IMG/VR virus record: IMGVR_UViG_3300049049_000146
Span: 67,216-131,215 of that record
Length of the DNA: 64,000 nucleotides
Strand: one strand, 5' to 3'
DNA from: a virus
Lineage: Duplodnaviria > Heunggongvirae > Uroviricota > Caudoviricetes
Part shown: positions 5,152-50,495 of the stretch, piece by piece
How positions within the stretch are numbered: the stretch's first letter is position 1
How the letters are laid out: each line of letters opens with the position of its first letter
Notes under the pieces: model-generated
Told to the model about the DNA's origin: nothing
What the model saw: only the letters and a program-made list of their open reading frames with translations
The model's database searches: none
Made by a program: the position numbers and the translations under genes

Positions 5152-5800
5152 TGTCTTCCACTCCGAGGAGAGTCGTTGCATTGCGCAGTCTGTCAAGGAT
5201 TGCATCCTTGTTCCGAGCGTAGTCACGCTTCAGATAAGGTGCCGTCGTACCACTCTCCAGCATCCCAAGAGCCTTCTTGCAAATGCTGTGGAAGCGGGCC
5301 TTCGACGACTTGCTCGTACGGGACATCATGCCTTCGCTCTCTGCCGTCGCTGCGTGGAAATCGGCAAGGGCGAGAGCAATCGCCTCCATGTCCGATACAC
5401 CCCAGCGCGAGAAGAACACGCGATTGCCCGGGGCAAGCTCACGGAACCGGAGAATGTCCTCGGTAGTGAACCAGCCCATGCCCATTGCATCGAGGCACTT
5501 CGGCTGGAAAGTCTCGTCAGCCATGTAGACGTAGAACCAAATGGAGCACGGGCTCTTCATCTGCGGATGTTCTACGTGAATAATCTGCGGCCGGTCATCG
5601 AAAGCTGACGGAGGAATTTCGACGCCAAGCTCTTCGTGAAGCTCACGGCTCAGAGCATCACGAGGGTCCTCACCGGGCTCGACCTTGCCTCCGGGAGATT
5701 CCCAATAGAACGGAAGCTCTCGATGTGCTGCCCGCTGCTGCATGAAAATGCGGTCACCACGCATGATGATCGCAGTAACGACGTGGACTTCCTTGCTCAT
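5144..5800 (-). CDS. Nudix hydrolase
   Basis: 218 aa; canonical Nudix box GGKVEPGEDPRDALSRELHEELGV. Confidence 0.85.
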   Translation of the reverse strand: MSKEVHVVTAIIMRGDRIFMQQRAAHRELPFYWESPGGKVEPGEDPRDALSRELHEELGVEIPPSAFDDRPQIIHVEHPQMKSPCSIWFYVYMADETFQPKCLDAMGMGWFTTEDILRFRELAPGNRVFFSRWGVSDMEAIALALADFHAATAESEGMMSRTSKSSKARFHSICKKALGMLESGTTAPYLKRDYARNKDAILDRLRNATTLLGVEDNE

Positions 5801-5818
5801 CGCTTCTCTGCTTTCTAA

Positions 5819-5855
5819 CCCCCGAAGGGGGCCACGGCGTGGTTGCCTGCCGTGG
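5819..5855. repeat. two adjacent GC-rich hairpins (CCCCCGAAGGGGG; CCACGGC-N10-GCCGTGG)
   Basis: Perfect inverted repeats in an unusually long (~200 nt) gap between 5999..6403 and the Nudix start; weak U-tract. Confidence 0.4.
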
Positions 5856-5998
5856 CTCAGGCGCTGGATTGGGGCTCATTCGGCTGGGGGCACGTCGTCC
5901 AGTCACCAGTGCCTGCGTTGTCTGATTTGCCCTTGGCTTGTGTACAAGAGCAAATCGCCGTCCCTCCCCGACCTCTTATGATAAGCCTCTTTACAGGA

Positions 5999-6403
5999 TC
6001 ACGACACGTAGCACGAATACTTGTGCCCGACCCTGTCCATTTCTTCGGCAGTCGCGTGTACCTGGTGGAGTGCGTCGGCTAGGATGATGCCGCGCACCGT
6101 GCCCCGGCTAGGCTGCCATCGAAAGGGCTTGCGCGCCATTACCTGCTTGACGTCCGCATCGAATAGACCGTTCAGATCCTTCCAACGTTCGGCGTCAGCG
6201 CGAGTCGCGAACACGTATTCCTCGCACGGCAGATCGCGATCCTTGCGCAGGACGATGAACCCTCGGAAATCACCAGGGTCATTTGCTGTAGGAGCGCTAG
6301 CGAGGCCGTCACAGTAGTCGCACACCCAGGAAATGAACAGCTGGCGCATCTTCTTCGAGCACTTCTGACAGATCATATGAGCCTCATTTCGAAGGTCGCG
6401 CAA
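5999..6403 (-). CDS. hypothetical protein
   Basis: 134 aa ORF; CQKC...CDYC zinc ribbon at N-terminus. Confidence 0.5.
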   Translation of the reverse strand: MRDLRNEAHMICQKCSKKMRQLFISWVCDYCDGLASAPTANDPGDFRGFIVLRKDRDLPCEEYVFATRADAERWKDLNGLFDADVKQVMARKPFRWQPSRGTVRGIILADALHQVHATAEEMDRVGHKYSCYVS

Positions 6404-7043
6404 GCATCATGGCAAAGCCTCCGCGCTGCGCGAGGAAATCGCGGTGAATCTCAACCCACTCCTCATCGGGAGAAGTGCGAGCAGAACAGCTTACGAGAAC
6501 CTCTTCCTGAATCTTGGAGCCGAGCTTCTTGCCGGCGTCATCGAAAATCGGTACCTCTCTTGTGCGGAAGCCGCAGAGCATCACCCAATGGTCCGTCCAT
6601 AGGTCGCCGGTCTTACGGTAATTGACCCCGGTCAAACCGTAGTATCCGGCTTCGAGTGCCATTCGGACGTAACCAATCCAGCCACGGACCATCGTGCGCC
6701 CAGGCATACCGAACGCCAGGTCGCCGAATGCCGGGCGGAACTCGAAGGGCCAAATCGGAACCTCAGTGATGAAGTTGTCGATCAACCCGCGGCTCTTGGC
6801 TTCCCAGAGGACGCCCTCGACGTCGTAATTCGACAGAGAGTCGTACCCGTTCTTACCTTCGCGCGACCATCGCCATTGCTCTTCCTTGCGGGTTCGCGAC
6901 TTGGCGATCTCGTAGACCTCTTCAATGCTGAGGCCGGTCACACCAGCAGTCACACAGGCGACGCAATCACCGCCAGGATACTTGTGCGGGACCGGCTGAG
7001 GAATGACTCGACGCGGGAGAACGATCTCGACGAACTCGGACAT
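6384..7043 (-). CDS. hypothetical protein
   Basis: 219 aa ORF. Confidence 0.55.
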   Translation of the reverse strand: MSEFVEIVLPRRVIPQPVPHKYPGGDCVACVTAGVTGLSIEEVYEIAKSRTRKEEQWRWSREGKNGYDSLSNYDVEGVLWEAKSRGLIDNFITEVPIWPFEFRPAFGDLAFGMPGRTMVRGWIGYVRMALEAGYYGLTGVNYRKTGDLWTDHWVMLCGFRTREVPIFDDAGKKLGSKIQEEVLVSCSARTSPDEEWVEIHRDFLAQRGGFAMMLARPSK

Positions 7044-7052
7044 GCCTCCATT

Positions 7053-7559
7053 TTACAGGGAGCGCACAGCGTCGTAGACGCGCCGCCACATGTCCGGCGA
7101 CAGACCGTCCGGCGTGTACTGCTGGACCATGTAGATTCGAGTGTCGTCAGGCATCTCTGTGTTCAGAGACTCGCCTTCACGCTTGACGTAGAAATGATCG
7201 AAACCAAGAGCCAGGCCGAGGCCCAACTGCAAATAGCAGGCGAGTTCCTCTTCGTACTGCGCCACGCTATCCTCGACAACGACCTTCGGTCTTGAATTCC
7301 ACCGGTTCGGGTCTCCTCCAATACCGAACTCAGGGAGGAACCTACGCTCAGCAGGAGCAACCACGAAATGCGAAATGTCGTGGAGGTCCGTCATCACACC
7401 GTACAGGCCGGGCCTGACGACGAGGCTGTGCCCATCCCACGAGAACTCACGCTCGTAACGAGTAGCCTCTATGACGAAGTCGCACGTAGGATCGAGGCGA
7501 CGCATGATTCCGTACGCTTCACGGCGTACAGAACACCCTCCATCGGTGTACGTATACAT
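7053..7559 (-). CDS. hypothetical protein
   Basis: 168 aa ORF. Confidence 0.55.
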   Translation of the reverse strand: MYTYTDGGCSVRREAYGIMRRLDPTCDFVIEATRYEREFSWDGHSLVVRPGLYGVMTDLHDISHFVVAPAERRFLPEFGIGGDPNRWNSRPKVVVEDSVAQYEEELACYLQLGLGLALGFDHFYVKREGESLNTEMPDDTRIYMVQQYTPDGLSPDMWRRVYDAVRSL

Positions 7560-7563
7560 GGAG

Positions 7564-7794
7564 TCACCCGAAGAGAGTGAACGTCAGGAAATGAATTGCC
7601 TGAGCTTCCTGTTCGAGCTTGTCTGCGAGTGCACGCCCACTCAGGCCAGCATTCACGGTGCGGCCTTCGTAGATGTCTCGCGTCTCCTGTGTAGCATTCG
7701 CAAGCAGGTCGACGATCGACTTGCCCTCTCGGATTGCTTCGGCGATGCTGTATAGGTCTTCGACAGTCTGGTGATCTTCATCATGAGACGACAT
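7564..7794 (-). CDS. hypothetical protein
   Basis: 76 aa ORF. Confidence 0.45.
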   Translation of the reverse strand: MSSHDEDHQTVEDLYSIAEAIREGKSIVDLLANATQETRDIYEGRTVNAGLSGRALADKLEQEAQAIHFLTFTLFG

Positions 7795-7800
7795 TGAGAC

Positions 7801-8082
7801 TTACCCCAAAGGAAACTTCGGCTTTGGTAGTGCTGGCGGCTTTGCCGCAGGCTTCTTAGGTGGTGGCGGAGGGTCGCTCTGGTACTCGCCCATGAGTTTA
7901 CGGAGTTGGACGATTACGCGACCGCACTCCTCAGCGCGGATCATGAACTTCTCCACGACTTCTTCGCCGTGGGACTCGACGGCCTTGGCCATTTCTAGAT
8001 GGTTCTCTCGGTCCTCCGTCAATCTGTCGAGGAGGAACCGGAGTGTGAACCGGTCTAGTGGTGTTCTCCAATCATCTGGCAT
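7801..8082 (-). CDS. hypothetical protein (Pro-rich C-terminus)
   Basis: 93 aa ORF. Confidence 0.5.
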   Translation of the reverse strand: MPDDWRTPLDRFTLRFLLDRLTEDRENHLEMAKAVESHGEEVVEKFMIRAEECGRVIVQLRKLMGEYQSDPPPPPKKPAAKPPALPKPKFPLG

Positions 8083-8090
8083 AGTGGCAC

Positions 8091-8121
8091 CGTCAGGATA
8101 GTAGTAAATACTACCCTGACG
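8091..8121. repeat. long hairpin CGTCAGG-ATAGTAGTAAATACTAC-CCTGACG
   Basis: 7-bp outer plus 6-bp inner inverted repeat, about 10 nt upstream of the ATG at 8082. Confidence 0.4.
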
Positions 8122-8175
8122 TTTCCCATTATGCCGCGGCAGTCAAGTATCTGTCAATGAATCCTGGACAGATGC

Positions 8176-8421
8176 TCACGTTTCCGTAGGGGAATCCTCA
8201 CGCGGCGGCTCAGCGGGAGCCAGCTTCTTTTCCTCGACCTTCTTGCGCATGCTCAGGAACTTCCTGTACACGCCCTTGAATTCCTGGGAATTGAGCTTCG
8301 GCCCGAGGTCGATCTTGCCATCCCCGCTCTGCGCGGCGGTCAGGATCTCGTTCATGAATTCGATTTCCTCGAACGTGAACGAGTTGGAGACCCGGATCTT
8401 CGATTCCTTGATGAGCGTCAT
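8176..8421 (-). CDS. hypothetical protein
   Basis: 81 aa ORF; divergent from the plus-strand gene. Confidence 0.45.
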   Translation of the reverse strand: MTLIKESKIRVSNSFTFEEIEFMNEILTAAQSGDGKIDLGPKLNSQEFKGVYRKFLSMRKKVEEKKLAPAEPPREDSPTET

Positions 8422-8453
8422 CGCACGTTATCTTTCAGCTGGAGGGTTCGCGA

Positions 8454-9812
8454 ATGAGACTGACAGTTACAAACCTAACAAATTCGAGCATTTCGGTCGG
8501 TGGCCGCGTCGGCAAACTGCCCGCTGGTATTTCCACGACGACCACGTTGGATTTGACAGTTGACGAGCTTGAGAAGGTGCAGTCTCGTCTAGTAGCCTTG
8601 AAGGCTGCTGGTGTGATTCTTTTCACTGTGGCTGCAAATGCAGACACGAACGACAATCCTACCGAGGGCGTGACTGTCCAGTACATGCAGGACTACGTCA
8701 CAACGGCACTCGCGGGTGTAAGCGGGGGCGGAGGTGGCGGACCTACCTACATCGTTGGAAATTCGGCAGCAGGCGATACCTCCTCCAATTGTACGCACCT
8801 CGATTCCGGCAACGGAGACGCCCTCAGGACCGCTCTAGCTGCGGCAGGCGGCACCGGGGGCTCGGTGTTCGTTCGTCGCGGCACGTACACGCTCACGCAC
8901 GCTGGAGGAGCGACGGTAGTGCCAGGTAACGTAGACCTTATCGGAGAGGGTCAGGGAACCGTCCTCGCGCTACCCCGCAGTGGTGAAATCTTCTCACTCG
9001 ACATCAACGGCAGAGTTGAGAACTGCGCCATTCGGCAGACCGGCCAGCCTAACGGCGCGTTTGCATTCAGCACCAACCGATTCATCGAAATGCGAGGAGG
9101 TGCACGACTGAACAAGTGCCTTGTTGAAATCCTCGCAAACGGAGGAAGCGCGGGTAACTACGGCGGCTTCTACTCAATGGTCCGCATGTCGTCAGCCCTC
9201 GGCCTCGTGAGCAACTGCGTGTTCCGTGGCTATTCTTCGACGACTCTGGGTGCCGGCTTCGAGTGCTTGGGCGTCCAGGCTATCGGCGGATTCTGCGGTG
9301 TCGTTGATTCGACGTTCGGGGACACCGGCTTCAACGCATTCGATGTGCCCGTTGAACTTGGTGAAGCTTCGTACAACTACGCCAAGGGCTGCAACTTCGT
9401 CCGCACGACCATTCACGGCGTCCGCCTTGTGATGGTGTTCGACACGCAGGGTCAGCGTATCGAGGGATGCAACTTCGACGTACGAGGCGGAAACGGCGTG
9501 GGTATCGAATGGTTCGGCAACGGTGTGCTGCGCAACACGCTCATTCACGGAAACGTGATCTCTTGCGCAGCGACAGCGTCGCACGGAATCAACCTCTTCA
9601 GCACCTCGGGCACGAACGAAATCGACTTCCTCAGCATCCAGAACAACATGCTGGTTGGTGCTGGTGCGGGTATCGGAATCCGCCTCGCAGAGAGCGGAGG
9701 CGGACTCAACAGCAACGTCAATGAATCGCTGAACTCTGTCTACAACTTCGGCACGGCGCGAAGCATTGCTGCCACTGGCGGAGGTCTCACCCAGGTCGGC
9801 AATCTTCCCTGA
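8454..9812 (+). CDS. glycine-rich right-handed beta-helix (pectate-lyase-fold-like) protein; tail-fibre/depolymerase-like or moron
   Basis: 452 aa; the only credible plus-strand gene; GGAGGG RBS 7 nt before the ATG; repeated N/GC-x-F/I and IxN/IHGN PbH1-like beta-helix repeats; poly-Gly stretch. Confidence 0.6.
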   Translation: MRLTVTNLTNSSISVGGRVGKLPAGISTTTTLDLTVDELEKVQSRLVALKAAGVILFTVAANADTNDNPTEGVTVQYMQDYVTTALAGVSGGGGGGPTYIVGNSAAGDTSSNCTHLDSGNGDALRTALAAAGGTGGSVFVRRGTYTLTHAGGATVVPGNVDLIGEGQGTVLALPRSGEIFSLDINGRVENCAIRQTGQPNGAFAFSTNRFIEMRGGARLNKCLVEILANGGSAGNYGGFYSMVRMSSALGLVSNCVFRGYSSTTLGAGFECLGVQAIGGFCGVVDSTFGDTGFNAFDVPVELGEASYNYAKGCNFVRTTIHGVRLVMVFDTQGQRIEGCNFDVRGGNGVGIEWFGNGVLRNTLIHGNVISCAATASHGINLFSTSGTNEIDFLSIQNNMLVGAGAGIGIRLAESGGGLNSNVNESLNSVYNFGTARSIAATGGGLTQVGNLP

Positions 9813-9813
9813 G

Positions 9814-10512
9814 CTACTTCGCCCAGCGCTTGAACATCTCCACGACGGACTTGGCCCCGGAACGCTTGAGCGTCCCCTTGACGCGATTGAGTTCCTTCTC
9901 GGCCAGGTCCGTCAGCGTATGCTGCATCAGCTTTACCCCGGCGATGAATTCCTCGACATCTTCCTTGTTCTCTGAGGCGAAATAGATGACGCCGCCATCC
10001 CTCTCTGCCCTAAGGCCCGGCCCCGGAACACTGAAATCACCAGCCCGATCGTAGAACGAATCAAGGCTCTCTTCCTTGAAGACACGAATCGGCTTCTCAG
10101 AATAGAGACCGGACAGGTTGACGCAGGTGCCCCAAAGCTTGTCCGCCTTGTCCTGCCTAGCCTTCCTGCCTTTCTTGTAGAGCTTCTCGGCTTCGTATTC
10201 CTTCCGCTCACGGGTTCCATTCTTGTAGTAGACGTCCACTACAAAGATGTCGTACAGCGGAGCGAACGAGTCGCTGCCCGTGAAGTAGTCCTCCATCTTG
10301 AGGAGAGACCACTCGTCGTAATACGTAGGCGTAGGGGTACCCTGGTCCTCACGCCACTTGTGACTCCAGCGATGTTCCAGGCTCCCGACGATCGACTCTG
10401 CCTTGGCGTTCGCCTCCTCCGGCGTGTCCGCTTCAATACACAGGCAGTGACCGTACGTGTCGGTAACGTTGAACCGGCCGTTGGGATTGTTCTGATCGTA
10501 CGTGAAGAACAT
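9814..10512 (-). CDS. hypothetical protein
   Basis: 232 aa ORF; convergent with the plus gene, stops 1 nt apart. Confidence 0.55.
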   Translation of the reverse strand: MFFTYDQNNPNGRFNVTDTYGHCLCIEADTPEEANAKAESIVGSLEHRWSHKWREDQGTPTPTYYDEWSLLKMEDYFTGSDSFAPLYDIFVVDVYYKNGTRERKEYEAEKLYKKGRKARQDKADKLWGTCVNLSGLYSEKPIRVFKEESLDSFYDRAGDFSVPGPGLRAERDGGVIYFASENKEDVEEFIAGVKLMQHTLTDLAEKELNRVKGTLKRSGAKSVVEMFKRWAK

Positions 10513-28696: not shown

Positions 28697-28893
28697 CCAA
28701 CCTTCTTTTGGCCGTTCACGTACGTCTCAATTACACGCTCAGAAGTACGGCCGCTGAGCGTCTGACGCTGAATCAGTTCAGCCTTGCCATTGGCTGACGC
28801 CCGCTTTGCAAGGTGGCGAGCAGTCTCGACCTTTGGCGTTGGTGGAGTCTTTTCCCTGGAAGTCTTCACGTAGTAGGAGACCGAGTCGGCCAT
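28693..28893 (-). CDS. hypothetical protein
   Basis: 66 aa ORF. Confidence 0.4.
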   Translation of the reverse strand: MADSVSYYVKTSREKTPPTPKVETARHLAKRASANGKAELIQRQTLSGRTSERVIETYVNGQKKVG

Positions 28894-29492
28894 TTGTATC
28901 CCTCGCTCAGAATGGAATGGATGTGGATGACGTCCACGTAAAGCTGCTGGTGCTCGGGGTCTTCGTCGTTATTGTCGACGACGAAGTTAGCCCACTTCAC
29001 CTTTTCCTCGACGGGCATCTGCGCTGCGATTCGCTGGCGTGCCTGGGCCTCATTGAATCCGTTGCGCGCCATGAGCCTACGCAGCTGCGTCTCAGGGCTC
29101 GTCTTTACAACAATGAGCGCATCGAACATGCGAAGATCGCCACGTTCGATAAGCGTCGCCGATTCGAAGATGGCGTACATTCCCGTACCCGCAGCCAGGC
29201 GCTTGTGGGCCTCCTCCATCGCAAGCGGGACCACGATGGATTCAAGCAGCTGGAGCTTCTGCTGGTCTGCAAAGACGATGTCCCCGAGCGCCCTACGGTC
29301 GATCGTTTCCTCGGGCGTGAGAATGTCCGTGCCGAATGCGTCAACGACCCGCTCGAATCCAACCGTACCCGGCTGGACTACGTCGCGAGAAATCTGGTCG
29401 GCGTCCACGCAGTGGACCTTGCACATCTGGAAGAGCTTACGGACGGTGCTCTTACCGCAGGCAATCCCACCTGTGAGTCCTACGATCTTCAT
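28866..29492 (-). CDS. dephospho-CoA kinase-like P-loop kinase (CoaE family)
   Basis: 208 aa; MKIVGLTGGIACGKST Walker A; VDADQI motif typical of CoaE. Confidence 0.7.
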   Translation of the reverse strand: MKIVGLTGGIACGKSTVRKLFQMCKVHCVDADQISRDVVQPGTVGFERVVDAFGTDILTPEETIDRRALGDIVFADQQKLQLLESIVVPLAMEEAHKRLAAGTGMYAIFESATLIERGDLRMFDALIVVKTSPETQLRRLMARNGFNEAQARQRIAAQMPVEEKVKWANFVVDNNDEDPEHQQLYVDVIHIHSILSEGYKWPTRSPTT

Positions 29493-30424
29493 TTCGCTTC
29501 TCCGCTAATCCAAGCGGCGTCGTGGCTGACCTTCGTATCGTAGACAGAGAATTCGACAATCGTCTTTCCGATCTCGAATCCCTGCACACCCAGGTCGTGC
29601 TTCAACGCGTCGAGCTTCTCGTTAAAAGACTCCGCCGTGCCCGTCGAGATGCGCAGCGTCATCATGATCATGAACTTGTCGCCATCGAGCTTCTTGAAGA
29701 CGTTACGCGACAGCTTGGCTCCGTGACCCTGGGCTACGGCCCGCAGCGCTCCCTGACGCTCCTCAGTGCACACGATGTTGAGATGCGACTCGAAGTAGCA
29801 GTTCGGCGGCATCTTCGGATTCTGGTGCCGCGCCGAGGGGGCCGAGGGGTGCCACGGAATCGTCTCGATCTTCTCACGGCAGACGAAATACCCGCCCGCA
29901 GCAAGGGCGTCCGAGATCCGCTTCATCTCCGCGTATGCCGTGCGGTTGTCTCCGATGTGAACCGAGGACGTCATCAGGTCTTTGATCACGCCATCATTCT
30001 GGGTATGAAGGTCGAGAAGAATGGGCTTGACGCCAATCTCTTCGCACTTCTTTCGGAAGTCCTCGACGAAGCTTTCACGCACGGTCACGTGGATTTCGTA
30101 CGGGACCGGGTACTTCGCCTTGACTTCACGCGCCTGAAGATCGGCCCAGTAAATCGCCTTACGGTTGATGACCTCGTCGATCTCGTCGTCGGTAGCACCA
30201 AGGTCATACCCGACCGAGAGGACGCACAGGAGCGCGTCTGCAACCTCCTCAAGAATTCGCTCACGGTCCACGAAGCGGTGCGTCGTGGCGTAGGCATTCT
30301 CGAACGGGAGAACGACCTTCGCTAACTCGCCCACCTCCTCGACGGTCTTGAGCGTCTTCTGAGTGAGGGTCTTCTTATCCGTCGCCGTCAGTCGGCGAAT
30401 CAGGTCGAACGTGCTTGGCTTCAT
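29489..30424 (-). CDS. MazG-like NTP pyrophosphohydrolase domain protein with C-terminal extension
   Basis: 311 aa; EEVGELAKVV and EEVADALLCVL (EExGE / EExxD) motifs in the N-terminal ~100 aa. Confidence 0.6.
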   Translation of the reverse strand: MKPSTFDLIRRLTATDKKTLTQKTLKTVEEVGELAKVVLPFENAYATTHRFVDRERILEEVADALLCVLSVGYDLGATDDEIDEVINRKAIYWADLQAREVKAKYPVPYEIHVTVRESFVEDFRKKCEEIGVKPILLDLHTQNDGVIKDLMTSSVHIGDNRTAYAEMKRISDALAAGGYFVCREKIETIPWHPSAPSARHQNPKMPPNCYFESHLNIVCTEERQGALRAVAQGHGAKLSRNVFKKLDGDKFMIMMTLRISTGTAESFNEKLDALKHDLGVQGFEIGKTIVEFSVYDTKVSHDAAWISGEAK

Positions 30425-31051: not shown

Positions 31052-32941
31052 TTAGCGGGTAGCCGGCTTACCGTTCTTATCTTCCTTGCGCACCGGGGCA
31101 GCAGCCGTCGGAGGCTCCGGAGCGAGAGCCGTGGTCGCGGCCTCCGTGAGTTGACGGACGACGCCCACGACCTGCTCCTTAGTTCCATCCGAGAGATTCT
31201 CCAGAAGCCCCTCGACCTGCGTCGCGAACTTCTGCCCGGAACCAAACGAACGAATCATCTCGTTCACCTGCTCGGGGGTGCCGTAGAGCTTCGCGTCGAT
31301 GCGCTGGAACATGGTCGCCTGGGCCTGTGCCATCGCAATGCGGACTTCCTTCTCCGCATTGACCTGGAGCTTCGCGATCTCGAAGTCCTGGGCCACCTTA
31401 CCATGCTTCTCGCGAGCCTCAAGCTCGGGCTTGATGACGGTCTCGACGCGCTCGCGCTCGACGGCAACCTCGGCCTTCTTCACCTCGATCGGCACCATGG
31501 CCTTTGCCATGTCACCGGCCGCACGCTGCTTCTCCGCCTCTGCGGCGGCTTCGGCGCCCTTGCGGACAGCCTCGGCCTCTGCGTCAGCCGCAGCCTTGCG
31601 GGCACGAGCAGCCGCCTCGATCTGGTACGACTCGGCGTCGGCCTGCTTCGAACGACGAAGGTAATCGCGCTCTGCCTCAGCCTGGGCCTCGACAATGCTC
31701 TTGGCCTTCGCACGCTCTGCCTCGGCCGTGACCTTGATCGTCTCGACCTCCTGCTGAGCCTTCTCGACCTCGGCCTCCTTTTGCGCGAGGAGGCGCTCCT
31801 TTTCGGCACGCTCGGCCTGCGCAGCAGCGACCGCAGCTTCCTTTTCCTGCTGGGTCACGAGAGTCGCCTGCTCGCGCTTCTCACGAGCAATTGCGACCTC
31901 ACGACTCGTCGCTTCATTTGCAAGCTGCACCGCCTGGGCCTTCTCCGCCTCGGCAAGTGCGAGCGCCTGCTGACGAGCGGTCTCCGCGACCTCCAGAGCC
32001 TTCGTCTTCTCGATGGCTGCGAGGTGCGTCTCGCGCTCCATCTCGATGACCTTCATCTGAGCATCGCGGTCAGCCTGGGCCTGAATGCGCTGGACTTCAG
32101 CATTCTGAAGGGCCATTGCCTCCTTCTCCTGCTGGTCGAGAGCCAGAATGCGCTTCTTATTCTCGACGTCCTGCTGCTTACGGCGCTCCTCACCGTCGCG
32201 GACGAGACGATTGCGTTCGGTCAAGCTCGACTCGGTGATTTCCGCGATCTTGCGGGCACCCTGAGCGTCGAAGATATTGTTGGTCTTCAGGAACTTCGGG
32301 TCCGTCTGGTCGAGGCTCGAAATCGTCACCGTCTCCAGGACGAGACCGTTGTTCTTGAGATCGTCCTGAAGAAGCTTCGTGACGTCCTCCAGGAACGAAT
32401 CACGTTCGCTATTCAGCGCCTCCAGAGACTTCGTGGCCGCAGCCGTACGAAGCGCAGAGACGAGCTTGTCTTCGACAAGCAACTTCACCTGCTCGGGGTT
32501 GTCCATTGCCTCACCGAGCGAACGAGCAGCCTGGAGAACCGCGTCCTCCTGCGGATTCACGCGAACGAAGAATTCGGCGCGAACGTCAGCACGCAGCTTG
32601 TCATGAGTGATGAGCGCATCCACGCCGGCACGCTGGACCTCCAGCTTGATCGTGCGCAGCGAGACGCGGGTCAACTCGTGGATGAACGGGATGATCACCG
32701 CGCCGCCATCCTGGATGACCTTAGCGCCGCCCTGACCCGTACGTACGAAAGCCTCCGACGCCTTCGTCTTCTGATAGAGACGAGTGAAGACGAATGCGAC
32801 ACCACTGAAGAGAATCAGCGCGACGCCCGAGCCGGTCAGACCAACCTGCGTTCCGGTACCCACCGGAATGCCGAGGATCTGAAGGACGATCGGTGTGGCA
32901 ACGAGCAGCACACCGAAGATGAATGCGATAAGAACTGCCAT
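31052..32941 (-). CDS. flotillin-like SPFH (band 7) protein
   Basis: 629 aa; N-terminal TM helix, SPFH core, long Ala/Glu-rich coiled coil (EA repeats) as in YqiK/FloT. Confidence 0.8.
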   Translation of the reverse strand: MAVLIAFIFGVLLVATPIVLQILGIPVGTGTQVGLTGSGVALILFSGVAFVFTRLYQKTKASEAFVRTGQGGAKVIQDGGAVIIPFIHELTRVSLRTIKLEVQRAGVDALITHDKLRADVRAEFFVRVNPQEDAVLQAARSLGEAMDNPEQVKLLVEDKLVSALRTAAATKSLEALNSERDSFLEDVTKLLQDDLKNNGLVLETVTISSLDQTDPKFLKTNNIFDAQGARKIAEITESSLTERNRLVRDGEERRKQQDVENKKRILALDQQEKEAMALQNAEVQRIQAQADRDAQMKVIEMERETHLAAIEKTKALEVAETARQQALALAEAEKAQAVQLANEATSREVAIAREKREQATLVTQQEKEAAVAAAQAERAEKERLLAQKEAEVEKAQQEVETIKVTAEAERAKAKSIVEAQAEAERDYLRRSKQADAESYQIEAAARARKAAADAEAEAVRKGAEAAAEAEKQRAAGDMAKAMVPIEVKKAEVAVERERVETVIKPELEAREKHGKVAQDFEIAKLQVNAEKEVRIAMAQAQATMFQRIDAKLYGTPEQVNEMIRSFGSGQKFATQVEGLLENLSDGTKEQVVGVVRQLTEAATTALAPEPPTAAAPVRKEDKNGKPATR

Positions 32942-32966
32942 GAGACTTTACCTTTCTATTGAGCTT

Positions 32967-33551
32967 TCAGGAGGGAAGCTGCTCCACCACAAAGGTGGAT
33001 TTCTCTTCGTCGAAATTGACGACCAGAACCTTTTCGCCCCGAGCGATTTCACCCGCTTCGGTCTTGGCAGGAATTCGGTGAAGCGAACCAGAAGCGTCTC
33101 GCACGTCCGCCGAGCCAGACGTAGGAGTAATGCGAGTAATCACAGTGGCTTCACGTCCAACCAAGTCGGACGACTTCTTGGTGTACGTCTCGACCGTGGG
33201 AATGAACCGGCCCACGATCCGAGCGAACATCGAAGTCGAGATCACAGAGAAGACAATCGCGAACACCAGGCTGTAGAACTCGATGCTGTCAATGAAGTGC
33301 TCGCCTACCATGACGAAGAGCACACCCGCCGCGCCGAAGGAGAGCAGGTAGCTCATCACCAAAATGGCAACAGGGGCCTTTCCTACGCCGAGGAGTGAAA
33401 GCATCCCTCCGTGATGGTCGTGATCGACATCCGGGTGCCCGTCCATGTCGAGGTCAACACCCAGCGCGCCCATCGCGGTCAGACCGACGAGGACAACCGC
33501 AAGAGCAATCGCGGTGTAGTAGAGATACACGACCCAGAGAACATCAGCCAT
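32967..33551 (-). CDS. NfeD-like membrane protein (flotillin partner)
   Basis: 194 aa; N-terminal multi-TM region plus C-terminal OB/beta-barrel-like segment; immediately upstream of the flotillin, as in yqiJ-yqiK/yuaF-floT operons. Confidence 0.7.
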   Translation of the reverse strand: MADVLWVVYLYYTAIALAVVLVGLTAMGALGVDLDMDGHPDVDHDHHGGMLSLLGVGKAPVAILVMSYLLSFGAAGVLFVMVGEHFIDSIEFYSLVFAIVFSVISTSMFARIVGRFIPTVETYTKKSSDLVGREATVITRITPTSGSADVRDASGSLHRIPAKTEAGEIARGEKVLVVNFDEEKSTFVVEQLPS

Positions 33552-33575: not shown

Positions 33576-33770
33576 TCATCTACAATCCTCACCGCAGTAG
33601 CAGAGCCATGGCCAGCGGTACATTGGGTGATACCAGCTTCGCTGGTAGCAAGTTTCCATGCACTCACGGCATGATTCAGTCATGCCCGAGGAATGCTCCC
33701 GCCATGCAGCAGGAGCTTCCTGATTCGTACAGCCCGCGGCTAAGCAGGCGATGAAGAAAAGGCGCTTCAT
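33576..33770 (-). CDS. small Cys-rich lipoprotein-like secreted protein
   Basis: 64 aa; lipobox-like LAAGC. Confidence 0.5.
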   Translation of the reverse strand: MKRLFFIACLAAGCTNQEAPAAWREHSSGMTESCRECMETCYQRSWYHPMYRWPWLCYCGEDCR

Positions 33771-33964
33771 TCGTAACGCTTACGAAGCTTGGCATCGTCA
33801 GTGAAGAACTCTCCGAGCCACTCGTGACGCATGCCGCCGTTGTGCGTCGTAACGATTCGACGTCCTATCGTTCCCTCATACTCCACGAGTACACCAGGTA
33901 CCCATGAGCCCGCAACTTCAACGTAGACGTTTTCGCCCTTTTTGTAGTTCACGTTACGATTCAC
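33767..33964 (-). CDS. hypothetical protein
   Basis: 65 aa ORF. Confidence 0.45.
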   Translation of the reverse strand: MNRNVNYKKGENVYVEVAGSWVPGVLVEYEGTIGRRIVTTHNGGMRHEWLGEFFTDDAKLRKRYE

Positions 33965-34767
33965 GAATTATCTCCATCATCGATGTCAATCGTCTTCGGC
34001 AGTTCCACCTGGCCGAGAATGATCGGCTCTCCCGGCTCTACGCTAGGAAAAACAATCTGGGCCTCGACGTCGTCTCCCCGCGGCTCTGCCACCACGAAGA
34101 TTTCTGCCTGGCTCGAACCAGGAAGCGGGCGGAGATTGTCCATGATGAAAGCGGGCAGCTTGGGCTTCGGCTCAGGCCCCGCTCCCAGCCATTCGCGCAA
34201 CTGAGCACGGTCCATGTTCGGCTGGCTCTGCATCGAGTCGATGATATCGGGCGGCGCCGCTGCAATGATGTTCCTCATCGCATCTTCAATCGTGGCCTGT
34301 GCGATGGAACGATGGATGAAATTCTCTTCGCCGTCTGCTCCGTCGTGCAGGTCAACGAGTTCATTCATCGACCACACCACGCCCGTATCGACACCCTCGA
34401 TGAATGAATCCATCAGTGCCTGCGTCTGCTTTTCCTCTTCAGCGCGCTCCGCCTCTCTGAGAGCAGGCATGCGCCGAGCGTGCTCGATTTCCCAGCGGGC
34501 ACCAGTCCAGGCAGATTCGCCAGGCCAGAACGATTCCATCTTGTTGAGAAGCGCTTCGGCCTCGTCGTACTTCTCGTCCTCGATGAGACGCGCAATAGCG
34601 TCGTTGTCCGTCCACGATTCCGTGGCGTAAGCCAACTCGCTGAGCGCCCAACGGACACGTCGCTTGAGCCTATGGCTGAGCTTCGTGCGGTCGAATGCCG
34701 GGTCAGGATACCTGCGAATGAGATTCAGCAGGAAGTAAACAGCCGTATCGTACATCACTTCTCGCAA
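33961..34767 (-). CDS. hypothetical protein
   Basis: 268 aa ORF. Confidence 0.55.
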   Translation of the reverse strand: MREVMYDTAVYFLLNLIRRYPDPAFDRTKLSHRLKRRVRWALSELAYATESWTDNDAIARLIEDEKYDEAEALLNKMESFWPGESAWTGARWEIEHARRMPALREAERAEEEKQTQALMDSFIEGVDTGVVWSMNELVDLHDGADGEENFIHRSIAQATIEDAMRNIIAAAPPDIIDSMQSQPNMDRAQLREWLGAGPEPKPKLPAFIMDNLRPLPGSSQAEIFVVAEPRGDDVEAQIVFPSVEPGEPIILGQVELPKTIDIDDGDNS

Positions 34768-35405
34768 TCTTCAGAGTGCTGATTTCCGGCGACGCACATG
34801 CCATAACAGCAAGGCTCCTCAGCGCTCTTCGAACTCACGCTGTGGCCCATGGCGCGAGAATTCATGAACTCGATGAATGCCTCTTCGAGCGCGGCCTGTT
34901 CGTAGGTACGGCCATTCTTGTTCGGCTGCCGGTGATTTCCGTAGAGCACCGCAAGAGAGGCGGTCTTCGCTGCCTTGCGTTCTTGCGGAGTTACTTCCTC
35001 CGCCGCCTTGTTGAACATCCTCGCAGCATTCTCGCGATGGATGTCGCCGCCGTCGAAGCCCGCCTTGAAGTAGAAAACGCGCGGCTTCGTCTTGCCCCGC
35101 TGCGTGCGATCAATGGCACGCAGGACGTCCAGGCCCCTCGCTAGATCGGCGTCACACTGAGGACACGACGCATCTCGGAACATGTCCTTAGCGGCGCACG
35201 GGAAATGGGCGGCGGACCTGTCGGCGGGAGTCGTGACGTACTGCGGCTCGTAGCGTCCGACGAACTGATTCTCGTACTCCGTCTTGAAGACGTACTTCTT
35301 CTCGACGGGAGCCTCGTACGCTCGGCACTTCGGATTCGTGCACCCCTCCGAACTCATGAGGAGGGTCAAGCGACAATCAGAATTGCAGTACAGACAGGTG
35401 GCCAT
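34755..35405 (-). CDS. protein containing a family-A DNA polymerase O-helix (motif B) segment fused to an N-terminal Cys-rich region (fragment, pseudogene or split gene)
   Basis: 216 aa; DIHRENAARMFNKAAEEVTPQERKAAKTASLAVLYG aligns without gaps to E. coli Pol I [36 protein letters not shown]; no motif A or motif C in this or neighbouring ORFs. Confidence 0.55.
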   Translation of the reverse strand: MATCLYCNSDCRLTLLMSSEGCTNPKCRAYEAPVEKKYVFKTEYENQFVGRYEPQYVTTPADRSAAHFPCAAKDMFRDASCPQCDADLARGLDVLRAIDRTQRGKTKPRVFYFKAGFDGGDIHRENAARMFNKAAEEVTPQERKAAKTASLAVLYGNHRQPNKNGRTYEQAALEEAFIEFMNSRAMGHSVSSKSAEEPCCYGMCVAGNQHSEDCEK

Positions 35406-36395: not shown

Positions 36396-36665
36396 TTAAT
36401 CTCCCGTGAAGATGTCGAACATGCGGTCGATATCGAACGACTCTTCGTCACCGGATTCGATCTTCGTCGGCGTGACAACCGCCCACGCAACGAAGGTCCC
36501 GTCGTCATCCAGACGAACGCTCAGACGTCTCTTCTCGGCCGCCGCCTCGATAAGAATCACTGCGCCGCGAAAGCCGGTGCTCTCGCCAGAGAATACGTCA
36601 CCGTCGTAATTCCTCTTGGCGAGAGCAGCGCGGAACTTCTCTTCCCACTCTTCGATGAAGCTCAC
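36396..36665 (-). CDS. hypothetical protein
   Basis: 89 aa ORF. Confidence 0.45.
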   Translation of the reverse strand: MSFIEEWEEKFRAALAKRNYDGDVFSGESTGFRGAVILIEAAAEKRRLSVRLDDDGTFVAWAVVTPTKIESGDEESFDIDRMFDIFTGD

Positions 36666-38059
36666 TCTTCCTCCCGGAAGCGCTTACCCACAGGGAAGCG
36701 CGGCACGCCATCCTTGGTCTTGTTCTGGTAGCAGACCGTCAGAATCTTGCCCTGCCAGAGACTGTGGTCCTCGAAGAATTCCTTGAGGCGGTCGAGTGAC
36801 CCATCCATCTTGGCCTTGAAGAGCTTCTCGTCCGGCGTCCTACAGATGAACGCAGCCACGTGCCCCATGAGCTTTCCGCGGCCTTCCTCGAAGTCGACGA
36901 TGGGGAACTCCTCGTCGAGGAATTCCTTGACCTTCAGGAGGTCGTAGCTGCGCTTGTACTCGTACATGCCGTTGGCATTACGAACCATCGCGCCCTCGTA
37001 ACCCTGGCGGAGATACTCCGTGAAGATTTCGACAAGCTCGTCTTCCGACTCAGCCTTCTTATTCTTCACGAGCTTGAACGGATGCGGCGCGTCAGCGAAC
37101 AATTCCTTCAGGTACTTGTATCGCTTGATGAACGGGACGCCCTCGATGACCGCATCGAACACGTGGTACTCGATTACCTCGTGGCCATCACCCGGCTTCT
37201 TCGACCGGCAGAGCGACATGATGCGCTCGAAATCCGTGGCGAGCGTATGAACGTATGCCTCACCGTCGAAGATGTGATTCCCTTCAGGGAACTTCTCCTC
37301 GAACGCACGAGCAATGTGCGGAAGGCTGGTGACCGGCTTGCGGTTACGCGTCCAGAGCTTGCAGACGCCATCATTGATCGTCGCCACCATGCGCATGCCG
37401 TCGAGCTTTTTGCTGACGAGGCAGGGGTACTTGATCTTGTGGCCGTGCTCGGAGAACTTGTGGGCGAGCATCGGAGAGATTCCTCCCTCGACGAACCGCT
37501 CGTCCGCCTCTCCCGCCGTGGCCTTTTCCGGGTCCTCGACGTAGAGCTTGATTCTCAGCTGCTTCTCCCAGCGAGCCTTTGCTTCTGCAATCGCCTGCTG
37601 TTCAGGAGTCGTCGCATTGACCTTGCCGAGATTCTTTCCGGCCTTGATCACGTCCTCGGTCGTTTGCTTTTTGCCGTCGACCTGGCCGTGAATGGTACGA
37701 ATCGTCGTACCCTCAACCTCGATCTTCCATTCCTGTAACGTGCCCTTTGTGTTCTTCTTGTAGAGCACGGGGAATTCAGTCTTCATCGAGTCTTCCTCAT
37801 TCGCGATTCGTAAGAGAACATCGGCGTGGCAGGGGAGCGGGGCGCACCAACACAGGAGGTCACGCCCTTTTAACTCCGCTCGGATCTTGCGCATCAGGAG
37901 TGGACGTGTCCTGACCCACTCCTCGTATTTACGGATTACCTCGGAACGTAGCTGGCCTGGCTGCAACTCGAACGGGTTTCCAAATGGCGAGGGCCTCCCG
38001 ACATATACAGCGTCAGGAGGCCACACGTTACCCGCGCGTCTGTTGTAGACCTTGGGCAT
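36662..38059 (-). CDS. ATP-dependent DNA ligase with N-terminal DUF4326-like domain
   Basis: 465 aa; KLDGMR adenylation motif I; C-terminal OB-fold motif ...GVPRFPVGKRFREEE; N-terminal YVGRPSPFGNPF (DUF4326 signature). Confidence 0.85.
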   Translation of the reverse strand: MPKVYNRRAGNVWPPDAVYVGRPSPFGNPFELQPGQLRSEVIRKYEEWVRTRPLLMRKIRAELKGRDLLCWCAPLPCHADVLLRIANEEDSMKTEFPVLYKKNTKGTLQEWKIEVEGTTIRTIHGQVDGKKQTTEDVIKAGKNLGKVNATTPEQQAIAEAKARWEKQLRIKLYVEDPEKATAGEADERFVEGGISPMLAHKFSEHGHKIKYPCLVSKKLDGMRMVATINDGVCKLWTRNRKPVTSLPHIARAFEEKFPEGNHIFDGEAYVHTLATDFERIMSLCRSKKPGDGHEVIEYHVFDAVIEGVPFIKRYKYLKELFADAPHPFKLVKNKKAESEDELVEIFTEYLRQGYEGAMVRNANGMYEYKRSYDLLKVKEFLDEEFPIVDFEEGRGKLMGHVAAFICRTPDEKLFKAKMDGSLDRLKEFFEDHSLWQGKILTVCYQNKTKDGVPRFPVGKRFREEE

Positions 38060-49073: not shown

Positions 49074-49257
49074 TCACTTTCAGCGCGCCGATCACCGCAT
49101 ACGAAAGGGCGGTGTTGAACACCGTAATGTTTCGCTCCCATGCACCATCAGGAGCGACCCAGTAAGAAACGAAACACCACGTGATGAAGAACAGACAGAT
49201 GTAGAACACACGCTTACGGACAAATTGCCGCAGCTTCATTCGCCAGCTGAGCTTCAT
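49000..49257 (-). CDS. small membrane protein
   Basis: Start at MKLSWRMKL; two hydrophobic helices. Confidence 0.4.
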   Translation of the reverse strand: MKLSWRMKLRQFVRKRVFYICLFFITWCFVSYWVAPDGAWERNITVFNTALSYAVIGALKVIARWPDDETYRNLHDSARQADRLA

Positions 49258-50495
49258 TGCGGGTGAACCTCGTGCTGCGGCCACACCTGACCCGCGTGGT
49301 TGACCTTGATGATCCACTCCTCACGCGGCTCGAATTGCTGGTAATCAGCGAGGCTGCTCGGCGAATACGTCCAGGTGTCCTGCTCTTCGACGAACACCAC
49401 CTGGTACGATTCAGCCTGGAGAATTCGCCAGTTCGGGGGCGAAGCATGAAGCCGAGTGCCCCAATACGTTTCCCGTCCGGTACCCGACGTCACCTCAGTA
49501 TCCCGAACAATCCACCGGTAGTAATCGTAGGTACACCAGTCATCGTAAACAGGACACTGATCGTAACACGTACTACAGCGTTCCTCCGAGCAGGTATCGC
49601 AGCATGTACTGCACGATTCCTCTTCGTGACAGGACGAATACCCGTTGCCGAGATCCGAACAGCTTTCGTGCGTCACGCAGTTGCAATCGTGGCATCGGCA
49701 GTCGTACGAGACCTGACGGCAATTGCAGTCGTGAGGATTGCAATCCCGGGTGCCGTGCTGCCGACGCTCACAGTGCACGTTGAAGGCGTCGATCGGATGG
49801 CCCCATCCCGAGCCGTGCTGGACCGTACGCTCCTCTAGCGTCCTCGTGTACTGCCACGCCGTGGACTGCACGAACGTGTCTTCTTCGTGCGGCACGCAGA
49901 GCCAGACGAAGAACATCACGAAGGCGGTGCACGCAGCGAGGATAGCGATGCCGAGTGCAATCGCTCCGGCCCTTCCGGGATTTCTCGGTGCGTCAATGGG
50001 TCGACCACCGACATACAGCTGAACCGGAGGACGAGGAACAGCCTCATCCGCCATCTTCTTGATCTTCTCCTTGCGACGGAGAAGGTCCTCGCGCGTCGGG
50101 CTCGTACGGTATCCCGCGGGTTCCGGGGGAGGAGCCGGTTCGGGAATTACCGGAGGCGGCGAATCGAGCGAAATCGCATTCGACGGATTCGGGTCGTGCA
50201 TCGCCTCCTTACGGGGCGCACCGCACTGCTCACACGTCTTACGTGAGAGGTCCCGATTGTCCCACGAACAGTAGCTGCAAGTCCAGTTTGCACCAGCACG
50301 TGCCTGCTTCAACTGCTCCGGGTTCGTCACCGTCGGACGATTCGACGGAAGCTCGTATTTCTCGTGGCGGTCTTTTGGCTCGCCACACGACTGACAAGTC
50401 ATGTGACGACCAAGATTCGATGCTCGGCACGCCGAACACGTCCAAGTGTTCTCGACGATCCGAGAAGGACCCTTCCTCACAACTCGTCTGGTCAT
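49254..50495 (-). CDS. membrane protein with two N-terminal RanBP2-type zinc fingers and a Cys/His/Asp-rich extracytoplasmic domain
   Basis: 413 aa; WTCSACRASNLGRHMTCQSCG and WTCSYCSWDNRDLSRKTCEQCG (W-x-C-x2-C-x3-N-x6-C-x2-C); Pro-rich linker; TM helix AIALGIAILAACTAFVMFFVWLCV; C-terminal CxxC/CH/CD-dense segment; GGAGGGAG RBS and motif copy 7 directly upstream. Confidence 0.6.
   Translation of the reverse strand: MTRRVVRKGPSRIVENTWTCSACRASNLGRHMTCQSCGEPKDRHEKYELPSNRPTVTNPEQLKQARAGANWTCSYCSWDNRDLSRKTCEQCGAPRKEAMHDPNPSNAISLDSPPPVIPEPAPPPEPAGYRTSPTREDLLRRKEKIKKMADEAVPRPPVQLYVGGRPIDAPRNPGRAGAIALGIAILAACTAFVMFFVWLCVPHEEDTFVQSTAWQYTRTLEERTVQHGSGWGHPIDAFNVHCERRQHGTRDCNPHDCNCRQVSYDCRCHDCNCVTHESCSDLGNGYSSCHEEESCSTCCDTCSEERCSTCYDQCPVYDDWCTYDYYRWIVRDTEVTSGTGRETYWGTRLHASPPNWRILQAESYQVVFVEEQDTWTYSPSSLADYQQFEPREEWIIKVNHAGQVWPQHEVHPQ

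Follow-up and report, generated by a model that had tools for sequence, protein, structure and literature searches.

A YqiJ/NfeD-type and flotillin-type gene pair in the genome of a probable jumbo phage

SPFH proteins form cages that confine a patch of membrane, built as a 24-mer in HflK/C, a 26-mer in QmcA and a 44-mer in flotillin (PMC12478178, PMC11260169). In bacteria, SPFH2 proteins and their NfeD2 partners constitute a dyad whose members co-evolve and move together in lateral transfer (Hinderhofer et al., 2009, PMC2636767). The dyad of a band-7/flotillin protein with YqiJ or YuaF is contextually tied to PspA envelope-stress operons (PMC11237479), and an SPFH protein is required for linking PspA to the membrane in Bacillus subtilis (PMC8581546). 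For the QmcA(YbbK)-YbbJ pair, PMC13086221, citing Tan et al. (2024), describes 26 heterodimers arranged as a cytoplasmic cage, and mentions the proposal that NfeD partners promote oligomerization. SPFH and flotillin cages are now understood structurally; their physiological role in bacteria is still vague and knock-outs often show little. Here, we describe a gene pair of this kind located in a window of 64,000 nt (the whole stretch of DNA analysed, positions 67,216 to 131,215 of the IMG/VR record IMGVR_UViG_3300049049_000146), which very likely derives from a jumbo phage.

The pair is almost certainly an SPFH2-NfeD2 dyad, i.e. a two-gene operon of a type widespread in bacteria that combines a YqiJ/YuaF-type NfeD protein with a YqiK/FloT-type flotillin. 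Taken as a whole, the data are best explained by a phage SPFH2-NfeD2 operon that probably serves the organization and maintenance of the host membrane. It is highly probable that the pair belongs to an uncultured jumbo phage of about 424 kb, that an ancestor of its phage clade acquired it en bloc from a donor near the Polyangia (Myxococcota), and that strong purifying selection has retained it since. The features of the module, including its transmembrane (TM) segments, are the following (evidence in brackets; ORF, open reading frame; AF2, AlphaFold2 model; pLDDT, predicted local distance difference test).

32967..33551, minus strand: gene of a YqiJ/NfeD2-type membrane protein of 194 aa, the short NfeD partner of the flotillin (ORF; PF21001)
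33255..33515, minus strand: YqiJ_N region, residues 13-99, spanning TM1, the loop and TM2 (Pfam; AF2; hydropathy)
33384..33461, minus strand: loop between TM1 and TM2, residues 31-56, acidic and His-rich, disordered, DLDMDGHPDVDHDHH (low-pLDDT loop in AF2)
32979..33173, minus strand: C-terminal soluble NfeD-type OB-fold beta-domain, residues ~127-191 (AF2; Foldseek)
32942..32966, minus strand: intergenic spacer of 25 nt, with a weak Shine-Dalgarno sequence AAAGG ahead of the flotillin ATG (sequence)
31052..32941, minus strand: flotillin-type (SPFH2/YqiK-like) gene, 629 aa, ATG start (ORF; Band_7; PDB profile; AF2 model match)
32777..32938, minus strand: N-terminal membrane anchor, two hydrophobic helices, residues 2-22 and 29-55 (hydropathy; AF2 helices with pLDDT 80-86)
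32234..32767, minus strand: SPFH/Band_7 alpha/beta domain, residues 59-236 (Pfam; AF2 secondary structure)
31289..32275, minus strand: EA-rich helical (coiled-coil) region of ~330 residues (223-551), followed by a conserved C-terminal segment
30990..31036, minus strand: intrinsic-terminator-like hairpin with a U-run, 16 nt past the flotillin stop (sequence; RNA fold)

Both ORFs are present on the minus strand exactly where an initial annotation, made from the sequence alone, had placed them, and the plan given there for the flotillin (TM anchor, SPFH core, EA-rich coiled coil) is borne out by hydropathy, Pfam and AF2 alike. The assignment to the SPFH family, also made there, stands as well. 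Pfam Band_7/SPFH PF01145 matches residues 59-236 (E 3.1e-21, 76.6 bits for a cutoff of 23.6), Flotillin-1/2 are the only PDB families matched by a profile of the flotillin family (E 4e-7), and a Foldseek search with the model returned Flotillin-1 (9BQ2_B) as the top match, with prohibitin and stomatin close behind, then HflK/C and QmcA. A phmmer search of the PDB sequences with the flotillin itself gave no match, whereas the profile search did. The SPFH domain of the model superposes on the isolated SPFH domains of flotillin-2 and stomatin with TM-scores of 0.7-0.84. Beyond it, the model contains helices 223-351 and 366-551, separated by a low-confidence break around residues 352-365, and in the profile search the helical region is aligned with Flotillin-1 up to chain residue 351. 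The fraction of E, A, K, Q and R in the coiled coil reaches 0.56-0.80 per 50-aa segment.

Other identities for this stretch were discarded. Orthology with FloT of B. subtilis is ruled out by the FloT equivalog model NF058507 (NCBIfam), which scores the window protein at 32 bits for a cutoff of 700, leaving a flotillin-type protein instead. An HflK/C (SPFH3) pair does not agree with a single SPFH gene next to an NfeD-type partner, and HflK/C chains rank under flotillin, prohibitin and stomatin. A 603-aa antisense ORF (31151..32962, plus strand) is not taken as a gene; it shadows the coiled-coil region, which is rich in GC.

The partner passes the Pfam model YqiJ_N PF21001 (27.8 bits, cutoff 23), and the Pfam scan found no match to YqiJ_OB PF07290 in it; more distant partner homologues, annotated as YqiJ-family proteins, carry both domains. 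In its AF2 model (mean pLDDT 76), three TM helices (6-29, 59-83 and 90-116) precede a C-terminal beta-domain of five strands (pLDDT 74-88). The top Foldseek match of this domain is YbbJ from the QmcA-YbbJ complex (8Z5G, E 9.5e-6); PH1510-C (3WWV) was matched with a TM-score of 0.83, a root-mean-square deviation of 2.0 A and 30% identity, 3CP0 with a TM-score of 0.78, and 2K5H was matched too. A profile of the partner family has as its best PDB match, over the same C-domain residues, YuaF of B. subtilis (2K14, an NfeD2 domain; E 0.006). The 194-aa protein has no ClpP-type protease domain and is therefore a short, not a long, NfeD protein. In the loop between TM1 and TM2, DLDMDGHPD forms a DxDxDG-like motif that is kept in the closest phage relatives and may bind divalent cations. 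An Asp-rich loop is kept across phage and bacterial partner homologues, the bacterial version being made of (DV)n repeats.

The two genes lie on the same strand, the partner first, with a gap of 25 nt, and a promoter and terminator scan detected neither a terminator nor a sigma-70-type promoter between them; no sigma-70 promoter was found around the module either. The hairpin downstream of the flotillin gene folds at -35.8 kcal/mol (z -4.8), a value equalled by none of 200 shuffles (0/200). A simple terminator scanner missed it, the loop being too long. The partner and flotillin genes are a two-gene unit closing a transcript. This gene order, noted in the initial annotation as that of yqiJ-yqiK and yuaF-floT, is indeed the one described for these operons (PMC2636767), and a YqiJ-like gene also lies upstream of the flotillin gene in ~78 of 79 bacterial loci.

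Using the gene catalogue, we followed the neighbourhood of the window for ~10 kb past each end, so that ~84 kb were inspected in all. The window contains ~131 small, tightly packed genes, of which 127 are on the minus strand, and its GC content is uniform at ~0.58. This one-strand architecture of small ORFs runs for 30 kb on each side of the pair and past both ends of the window. Only ~17 window proteins carry a Pfam domain, and these are phage-style accessories: ATP ligase-DUF4326, a MazG fusion, NUDIX, NinG, HNH, GmrSD_N, AlkB-like, DHH, HAD RNA-repair and CoaE. Matches were obtained to 31 PHROG families, and Phage_phiTE_072 is also present. A flotillin identical to that of the window is encoded on a 423.8-kb metagenome contig of the Joint Genome Institute (3300071358) and in an independent Logan assembly. 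Past window position 64000, ~30 kb from the flotillin module, the contig carries a Phage_T4_rIIB gene (396 aa) beside a 746-aa gene that may be rIIA-like, as well as a PHA02142-type RNA ligase and a NUDIX gene; beyond the other border there are only small ORFs. A weak PHROG match to 'portal' (E 1.5e-8) was not counted as a hallmark, as it was found in no individually scanned large ORF and was traced to no specific ORF. Host DNA flanking a prophage, the alternative raised at the outset, is dismissed by the uniform GC content and architecture: with one-strand small ORFs throughout, the pair is embedded in a mobile genome.

Among 8,000 candidates scored, 927 are homologues of the flotillin at E<=1e-3. 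Those closest to the window protein fall into 20 clusters at 90% identity (P0001-P0020), 64-100% identical to it, on contigs of up to 848 kb. The contexts inspected were phage-like in five cases out of five (L004, L005, L011, L012 and L013 in our numbering of loci), always with a YqiJ-like gene directly upstream, and the flotillins of P0001-P0020 are monophyletic, forming one clade with a neighbour-joining bootstrap of 100/100. The nearest cellular relatives are all chromosomal genes of Polyangia, at 49-57% identity. A survey of 185,579 species genomes gave ~20 best matches from Polyangiaceae, Polyangiales, Sandaracinaceae and metagenome-assembled genomes (MAGs) labelled 'Myxococcales' or 'delta proteobacterium', and no cellular flotillin more than 55% identical to that of the window. 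The bacterial loci (L007, L009) are surrounded by genes for kinases and sigma-54 activators and have a GC content of 67-72%. The partner co-diverges with the flotillin, being 41-51% identical to its counterparts in phage loci and 33-36% identical to those in the same loci of bacteria. The simplest reading of these data would be a single en-bloc capture, by the ancestor of the clade, from a Polyangia-like donor. Such a donor would in turn provide a clue to the host range of this uncultured phage lineage. The best cellular match of the dephospho-CoA kinase CoaE also encoded in the window is from a Myxococcales MAG (49%); the later matches are scattered across phyla, so that this is a weak host signal.

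The sister genome L013, with 87-90% nucleotide identity, allowed us to compute the ratio of nonsynonymous to synonymous substitution rates (dN/dS) for 32 orthologous pairs. The values of the flotillin (dN 0.011, dS 0.294, dN/dS 0.038) and of the partner (dN/dS 0.074) are among the lowest of the 32. Strong purifying selection acts on both genes, and the idea of a decaying passenger gene was discarded (dN/dS 0.04-0.07). In L005, L011 and L012 the flotillin is still 67-69% identical and little else is recognizable (the ligase at 31%, one or two small ORFs), which could reflect either exceptional constraint or a cassette moving among phages. The same genome type was assembled independently from several samples.

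Outside this clade, the pair is rare among catalogued phages yet recurrent in giant ones. In 50,697 GenBank phage records, tblastn with the flotillin retrieved six records and with the partner none. The best match is the cultured Sinorhizobium jumbo phage Phosso (PV764938, 469 kb, L001), in which a YqiJ protein with N-terminal and OB domains, a flotillin with Band_7 and Flot domains, an XpaC-like protein (PF10112) and TelA are encoded in succession (5290-9470). A scan of IMG/VR with the single sequence gave no match; an alignment-based scan was needed, which identified 15 loci at 34-49% identity, with GC contents from 27% to 57%, on contigs of up to 543 kb, and with a YqiJ-like ORF directly upstream in all 15. 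The four-gene layout of Phosso is found in seven of the 15 (L021-L024 and L026-L028, ~5280-9725; contigs of 44-465 kb); it was confirmed by Pfam in five contigs, and in L023 and L028 by gene layout and similarity to L022 and L021. The Phosso-type cluster thus joins two envelope-stress-type modules in giant phages, and PAS histidine kinases and response regulators lie near it in some Phosso-like contigs. In another locus (L016, 84.5 kb, GC 44%), the flotillin is directly followed by a 642-aa FtsH-like protein with a weak AAA match and a Peptidase_M41 domain (8055-9983), possibly a phage-borne SPFH-protease unit. Four loci with mixed-strand, housekeeping-like surroundings (L014, L017, L019 and L025) may be cellular and were left out as secure phage examples; in the first three, CoaE is encoded no more than ~2 kb from the YqiJ and flotillin genes, which may be a linkage that recurs or may indicate that these loci are cellular. 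The statement of the initial annotation that such a pair is uncommon in viruses therefore applies to catalogued phages (6/50,697 records), and has to be qualified by its recurrence in Phosso, in the 15 IMG/VR loci and in the 20-cluster clade.

How might the pair act? By homology with the bacterial systems, partner and flotillin would be co-transcribed after infection, and the N-terminal hairpin of the flotillin would enter the host inner membrane. The long helices of the flotillin could then drive its oligomerization into a dome or cage that lies against the membrane from the cytoplasmic side and encloses a patch of it, in which the YqiJ-like partner would be held by its three TM helices. Like YbbJ on QmcA, the partner may bind the SPFH ring, with its cytoplasmic OB domain, and promote or stabilize assembly. 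The phage would gain an inner membrane kept organized and intact, with its barrier and energization maintained through a long jumbo-phage cycle, which is also what has been proposed for the dyad in bacteria, PspA-linked versions included: a role in envelope stress or membrane maintenance. We give this mechanism of cage assembly and membrane maintenance an even chance of being correct; the assembly, the topology, the stage at which the genes are expressed and what the phage gains are all deduced by homology. The linkage to TelA and XpaC in Phosso-like phages fits the theme of membrane stress.

Several observations weigh against this interpretation. The initial annotation had called the partner NfeD-type: YqiJ_N PF21001 passes and the OB fold is supported by structure, but the Pfam NfeD model PF01957 scores 18.7 bits, under its cutoff of 29.1. 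The Flot C-terminal domain PF15975, which is present in the flotillins of Phosso and several IMG/VR phages, has no match at E<=0.01 in the window flotillin; an hhalign alignment with these Flot-bearing phage flotillins covers residues 33-484, ending early in their Flot region, and the last ~145 residues lie outside it. The tree was built by neighbour joining only, and because its phage clade stands beside that of the Polyangia as a sister group and not nested inside it, the direction of the transfer and the donor are what we infer. No TelA, XpaC or PspA neighbour exists in the window. Bacterial flotillin mutants are often mild in phenotype (PMC13086221), and the benefit to the phage may for this reason be subtle or other than proposed; why a phage genome holds an SPFH gene has been termed unclear (PMC13239085). 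Finally, capsid, portal and terminase genes were not seen in ~84 kb (the 64-kb window and ~20 kb beyond), and because of this the label 'phage' relies on the architecture, rIIB and the PHROG matches. The claim that the pair is phage-borne can accordingly be kept as very likely, with a T4-type rIIB gene in its favour and no structural hallmark in the inspected DNA.

That no such genes were seen in the inspected DNA is also an argument for a non-viral origin, in which case the pair would be the housekeeping copy of a giant plasmid, of another element or of a mis-assembled cellular fragment. No IMG/VR relative is closer than 49% identity, and megablast with 8 kb around the locus found no match among GenBank phages. 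We nevertheless consider such an origin very improbable: the gene architecture would be extreme for a cellular or plasmid replicon, the 31 PHROG families come together with Phage_T4_rIIB, Phage_phiTE_072 and NinG, and phages of 320-635 kb encode proteins with 43-46% identity to the MazG fusion. The survey of 185,579 species, with no cellular flotillin above 55% identity, and the independent assembly of the genome type in several samples point in the same direction. Alternatively, the pair might take part in counter-defence, the SPFH cage shielding the membrane of the infected cell from depolarizing or pore-forming effectors of abortive infection (Abi) by sequestering them or buffering the damage, which would let the phage complete its cycle, much as rII is needed against RexAB. 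The same contig carries the T4-type rIIB gene and its large neighbour, a sign that this phage invests in genes for conflicts at the membrane; many window genes are of counter-defence type (RNA repair, GmrSD_N, MazG, NUDIX), and strong purifying selection together with recurrence across giant-phage groups shows a general benefit. Against this role, PADLOC-DB models gave no match at E<=0.01 for the pair and four neighbouring proteins, no anti-defence family was matched, rIIB is more than 30 kb away, and the architecture of the pair is nearly unchanged from that of the housekeeping bacterial dyad. Counter-defence appears rather unlikely.

Control of proteolysis is similarly unlikely. Here, the cage would recruit or gate a membrane AAA+ protease, either FtsH of the host or a phage enzyme, in the manner of HflK/C, and would stabilize or remove particular membrane or regulatory proteins in the course of infection. 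FtsH has established or reported interactions with HflK/C and QmcA/YbbK (PMC2636767), the fold matches include PDB 7WI3, and the pair of L016 directly precedes the FtsH-type 642-aa protein. Yet this is one of ~25 viral loci, the window has no protease gene near the pair and a short NfeD partner without a ClpP domain, and the closest structural relatives are flotillins and not HflK/C. Superinfection exclusion or a role in entry, of which exclusion was proposed in the initial annotation, would require either that remodelled microdomains block the injection of rival DNA or that the proteins act at adsorption or entry. A paper on a T5-like phage speculated on a role in adsorption or entry for its SPFH lipoprotein (PMC13239085), and PHROG 200 ('lipoprotein') is the sole PHROG match. 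We regard this as improbable, since nothing marks the proteins as virion components, they show no similarity to known exclusion proteins, and the topology predicted by homology with QmcA-YbbJ and flotillin places the bulk of both in the cytoplasm.

A more ambitious proposal is that the pair serves specifically to take over the inner membrane of the host, representing a new class of membrane counter-defence or remodelling module and no passive housekeeping copy. It could shield against membrane-targeting Abi effectors, or provide a scaffold for microdomains or vesicles used in replication, assembly or the timing of lysis. We consider it doubtful. There is room for it because the flotillin is the best-conserved item (67-69%) between divergent genomes of the clade, and because the pair recurs in unrelated giant phages with a variable linkage to TelA/XpaC or to an FtsH-like protein. 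Whichever role applies, purifying selection and recurrence in giant phages suggest that the module is beneficial in one defined situation, infection, which could provide a sharper assay for what bacterial flotillin and NfeD proteins do. We found no published functional work on a phage-encoded SPFH/NfeD pair; as Phosso is cultured and carries the pair, the question is directly testable. Like the rII genes, the YqiJ-flotillin dyad can now be counted among the accessory modules that giant phages have taken from hosts.

Two small ORFs lie directly upstream of the module.

33576..33770: Cys-rich mini-ORF of 64 aa, with a lipobox-like start MKRLFFIACLAAGC (LAAGC)
33767..33964: ORF of 65 aa preceding the mini-ORF

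Both are held by an insertion of ~400 bp (33576-33974), at the place of which the sister genome L013 has 7 bp. They appear translationally coupled by GTGA and ATGA overlaps of start and stop codons, the 64-aa ORF beginning in the ATGA overlap. The latter was skipped by the gene caller of the source metagenome, its codon-position GC is atypical, and a search of 1.84 billion representative proteins returned no homologue of it. It resembles a small 'moron' specific to the strain, and the suggestion that it belongs to a membrane-directed sub-cluster had to be abandoned, given its lack of homologues and its location in an insertion absent from a genome 87-90% identical.

Several other genes of the window, all on the minus strand, deserve mention. 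CoaE (28866-29492, E 1.6e-52) is encoded 1.6 kb downstream of the module, next to a MazG-like pyrophosphatase that carries, in fusion, a ~200-aa domain of unknown function (phrog_1247; 29489-30424). On the other side are a 216-aa protein (34755-35405), 66% identical in L013, whose only recognizable part is a 41-residue motif of family-A DNA polymerases (E 5e-7), and an ATP-dependent DNA ligase fused at its N-terminus to DUF4326 (36662-38059). A 413-aa protein (49254-50495) combines zinc-ribbon-like N-terminal repeats, a proline-rich linker and one TM segment with a C-terminal half that is extremely Cys-rich (runs of CNC, CxC and CxxC); it has no Pfam or PHROG match. A single tRNA-Ile with the unusual anticodon AAT (25207-25283) was identified by ARAGORN and Rfam (50.7 bits). 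RNA-repair genes at 610-2075 encode a DHH phosphoesterase and a 'Swiss-army-knife' HAD protein, and in L005 and L011 Thg1, RtcB, Tpt1 (PTS_2-RNA) and an R2K ATP-grasp protein are encoded downstream of the flotillin. Such recurrent RNA-repair sets suggest counter-measures to defences that target tRNA.

Several described systems resemble the window pair. T5-like and crAss-like phages encode SPFH proteins annotated as 'lipoprotein' or 'flotillin family protein' (PHROG 200; Vibrio phage KIT04, csAssE-Sib), with a small TM gene upstream, as in the window, but the similarity is confined to the SPFH domain, at 25-28% identity. The proteins encoded upstream of the SPFH genes of KIT04 and csAssE-Sib fall below significance against Pfam and the YqiJ profile. 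In csAssE-Sib, this 164-aa 'transmembrane protein' (L002, 3471-3965) is organized like YqiJ, with a TM segment, an Asp-rich DxDxD loop, a second TM segment and a beta-rich C-terminus. The QmcA(YbbK)-YbbJ cage of Escherichia coli (8Z5G) provides a structural template for the placement of the NfeD partner on the SPFH ring, although it is of the stomatin type (SPFH1/NfeD1) and not of the flotillin type, with ~16% sequence identity. Phosso shares the gene order of the window, with 38% identity limited to the SPFH region. It differs by its Flot domain and by the XpaC-like and TelA genes after the pair, both missing from the window, and its pair is probably a separate acquisition. The pairs of Polyangia (Polyangiaceae, Sandaracinaceae; L009, L030, L031) resemble that of the window in flotillin length (590-640 aa), in the C-terminal region and in the adjacency of the two genes; they differ by a GC content of 67-72% and ordinary chromosomal neighbours, and the phage clade forms a separate, well-supported branch. 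Finally, in yqiJ-yqiK of E. coli and yuaF-floT of B. subtilis, a small multi-TM NfeD-like gene is likewise followed by a flotillin-like gene, and the domain plan is the same: three TM helices and an OB domain in the partner; an anchor, an SPFH domain and a long coiled coil in the flotillin. The window pair is distant from them in sequence, no Flot domain was detected in it, its partner loop is His- and Asp-rich instead of made of the (DV)n repeats of bacterial relatives, and it resides in a giant phage-like genome.

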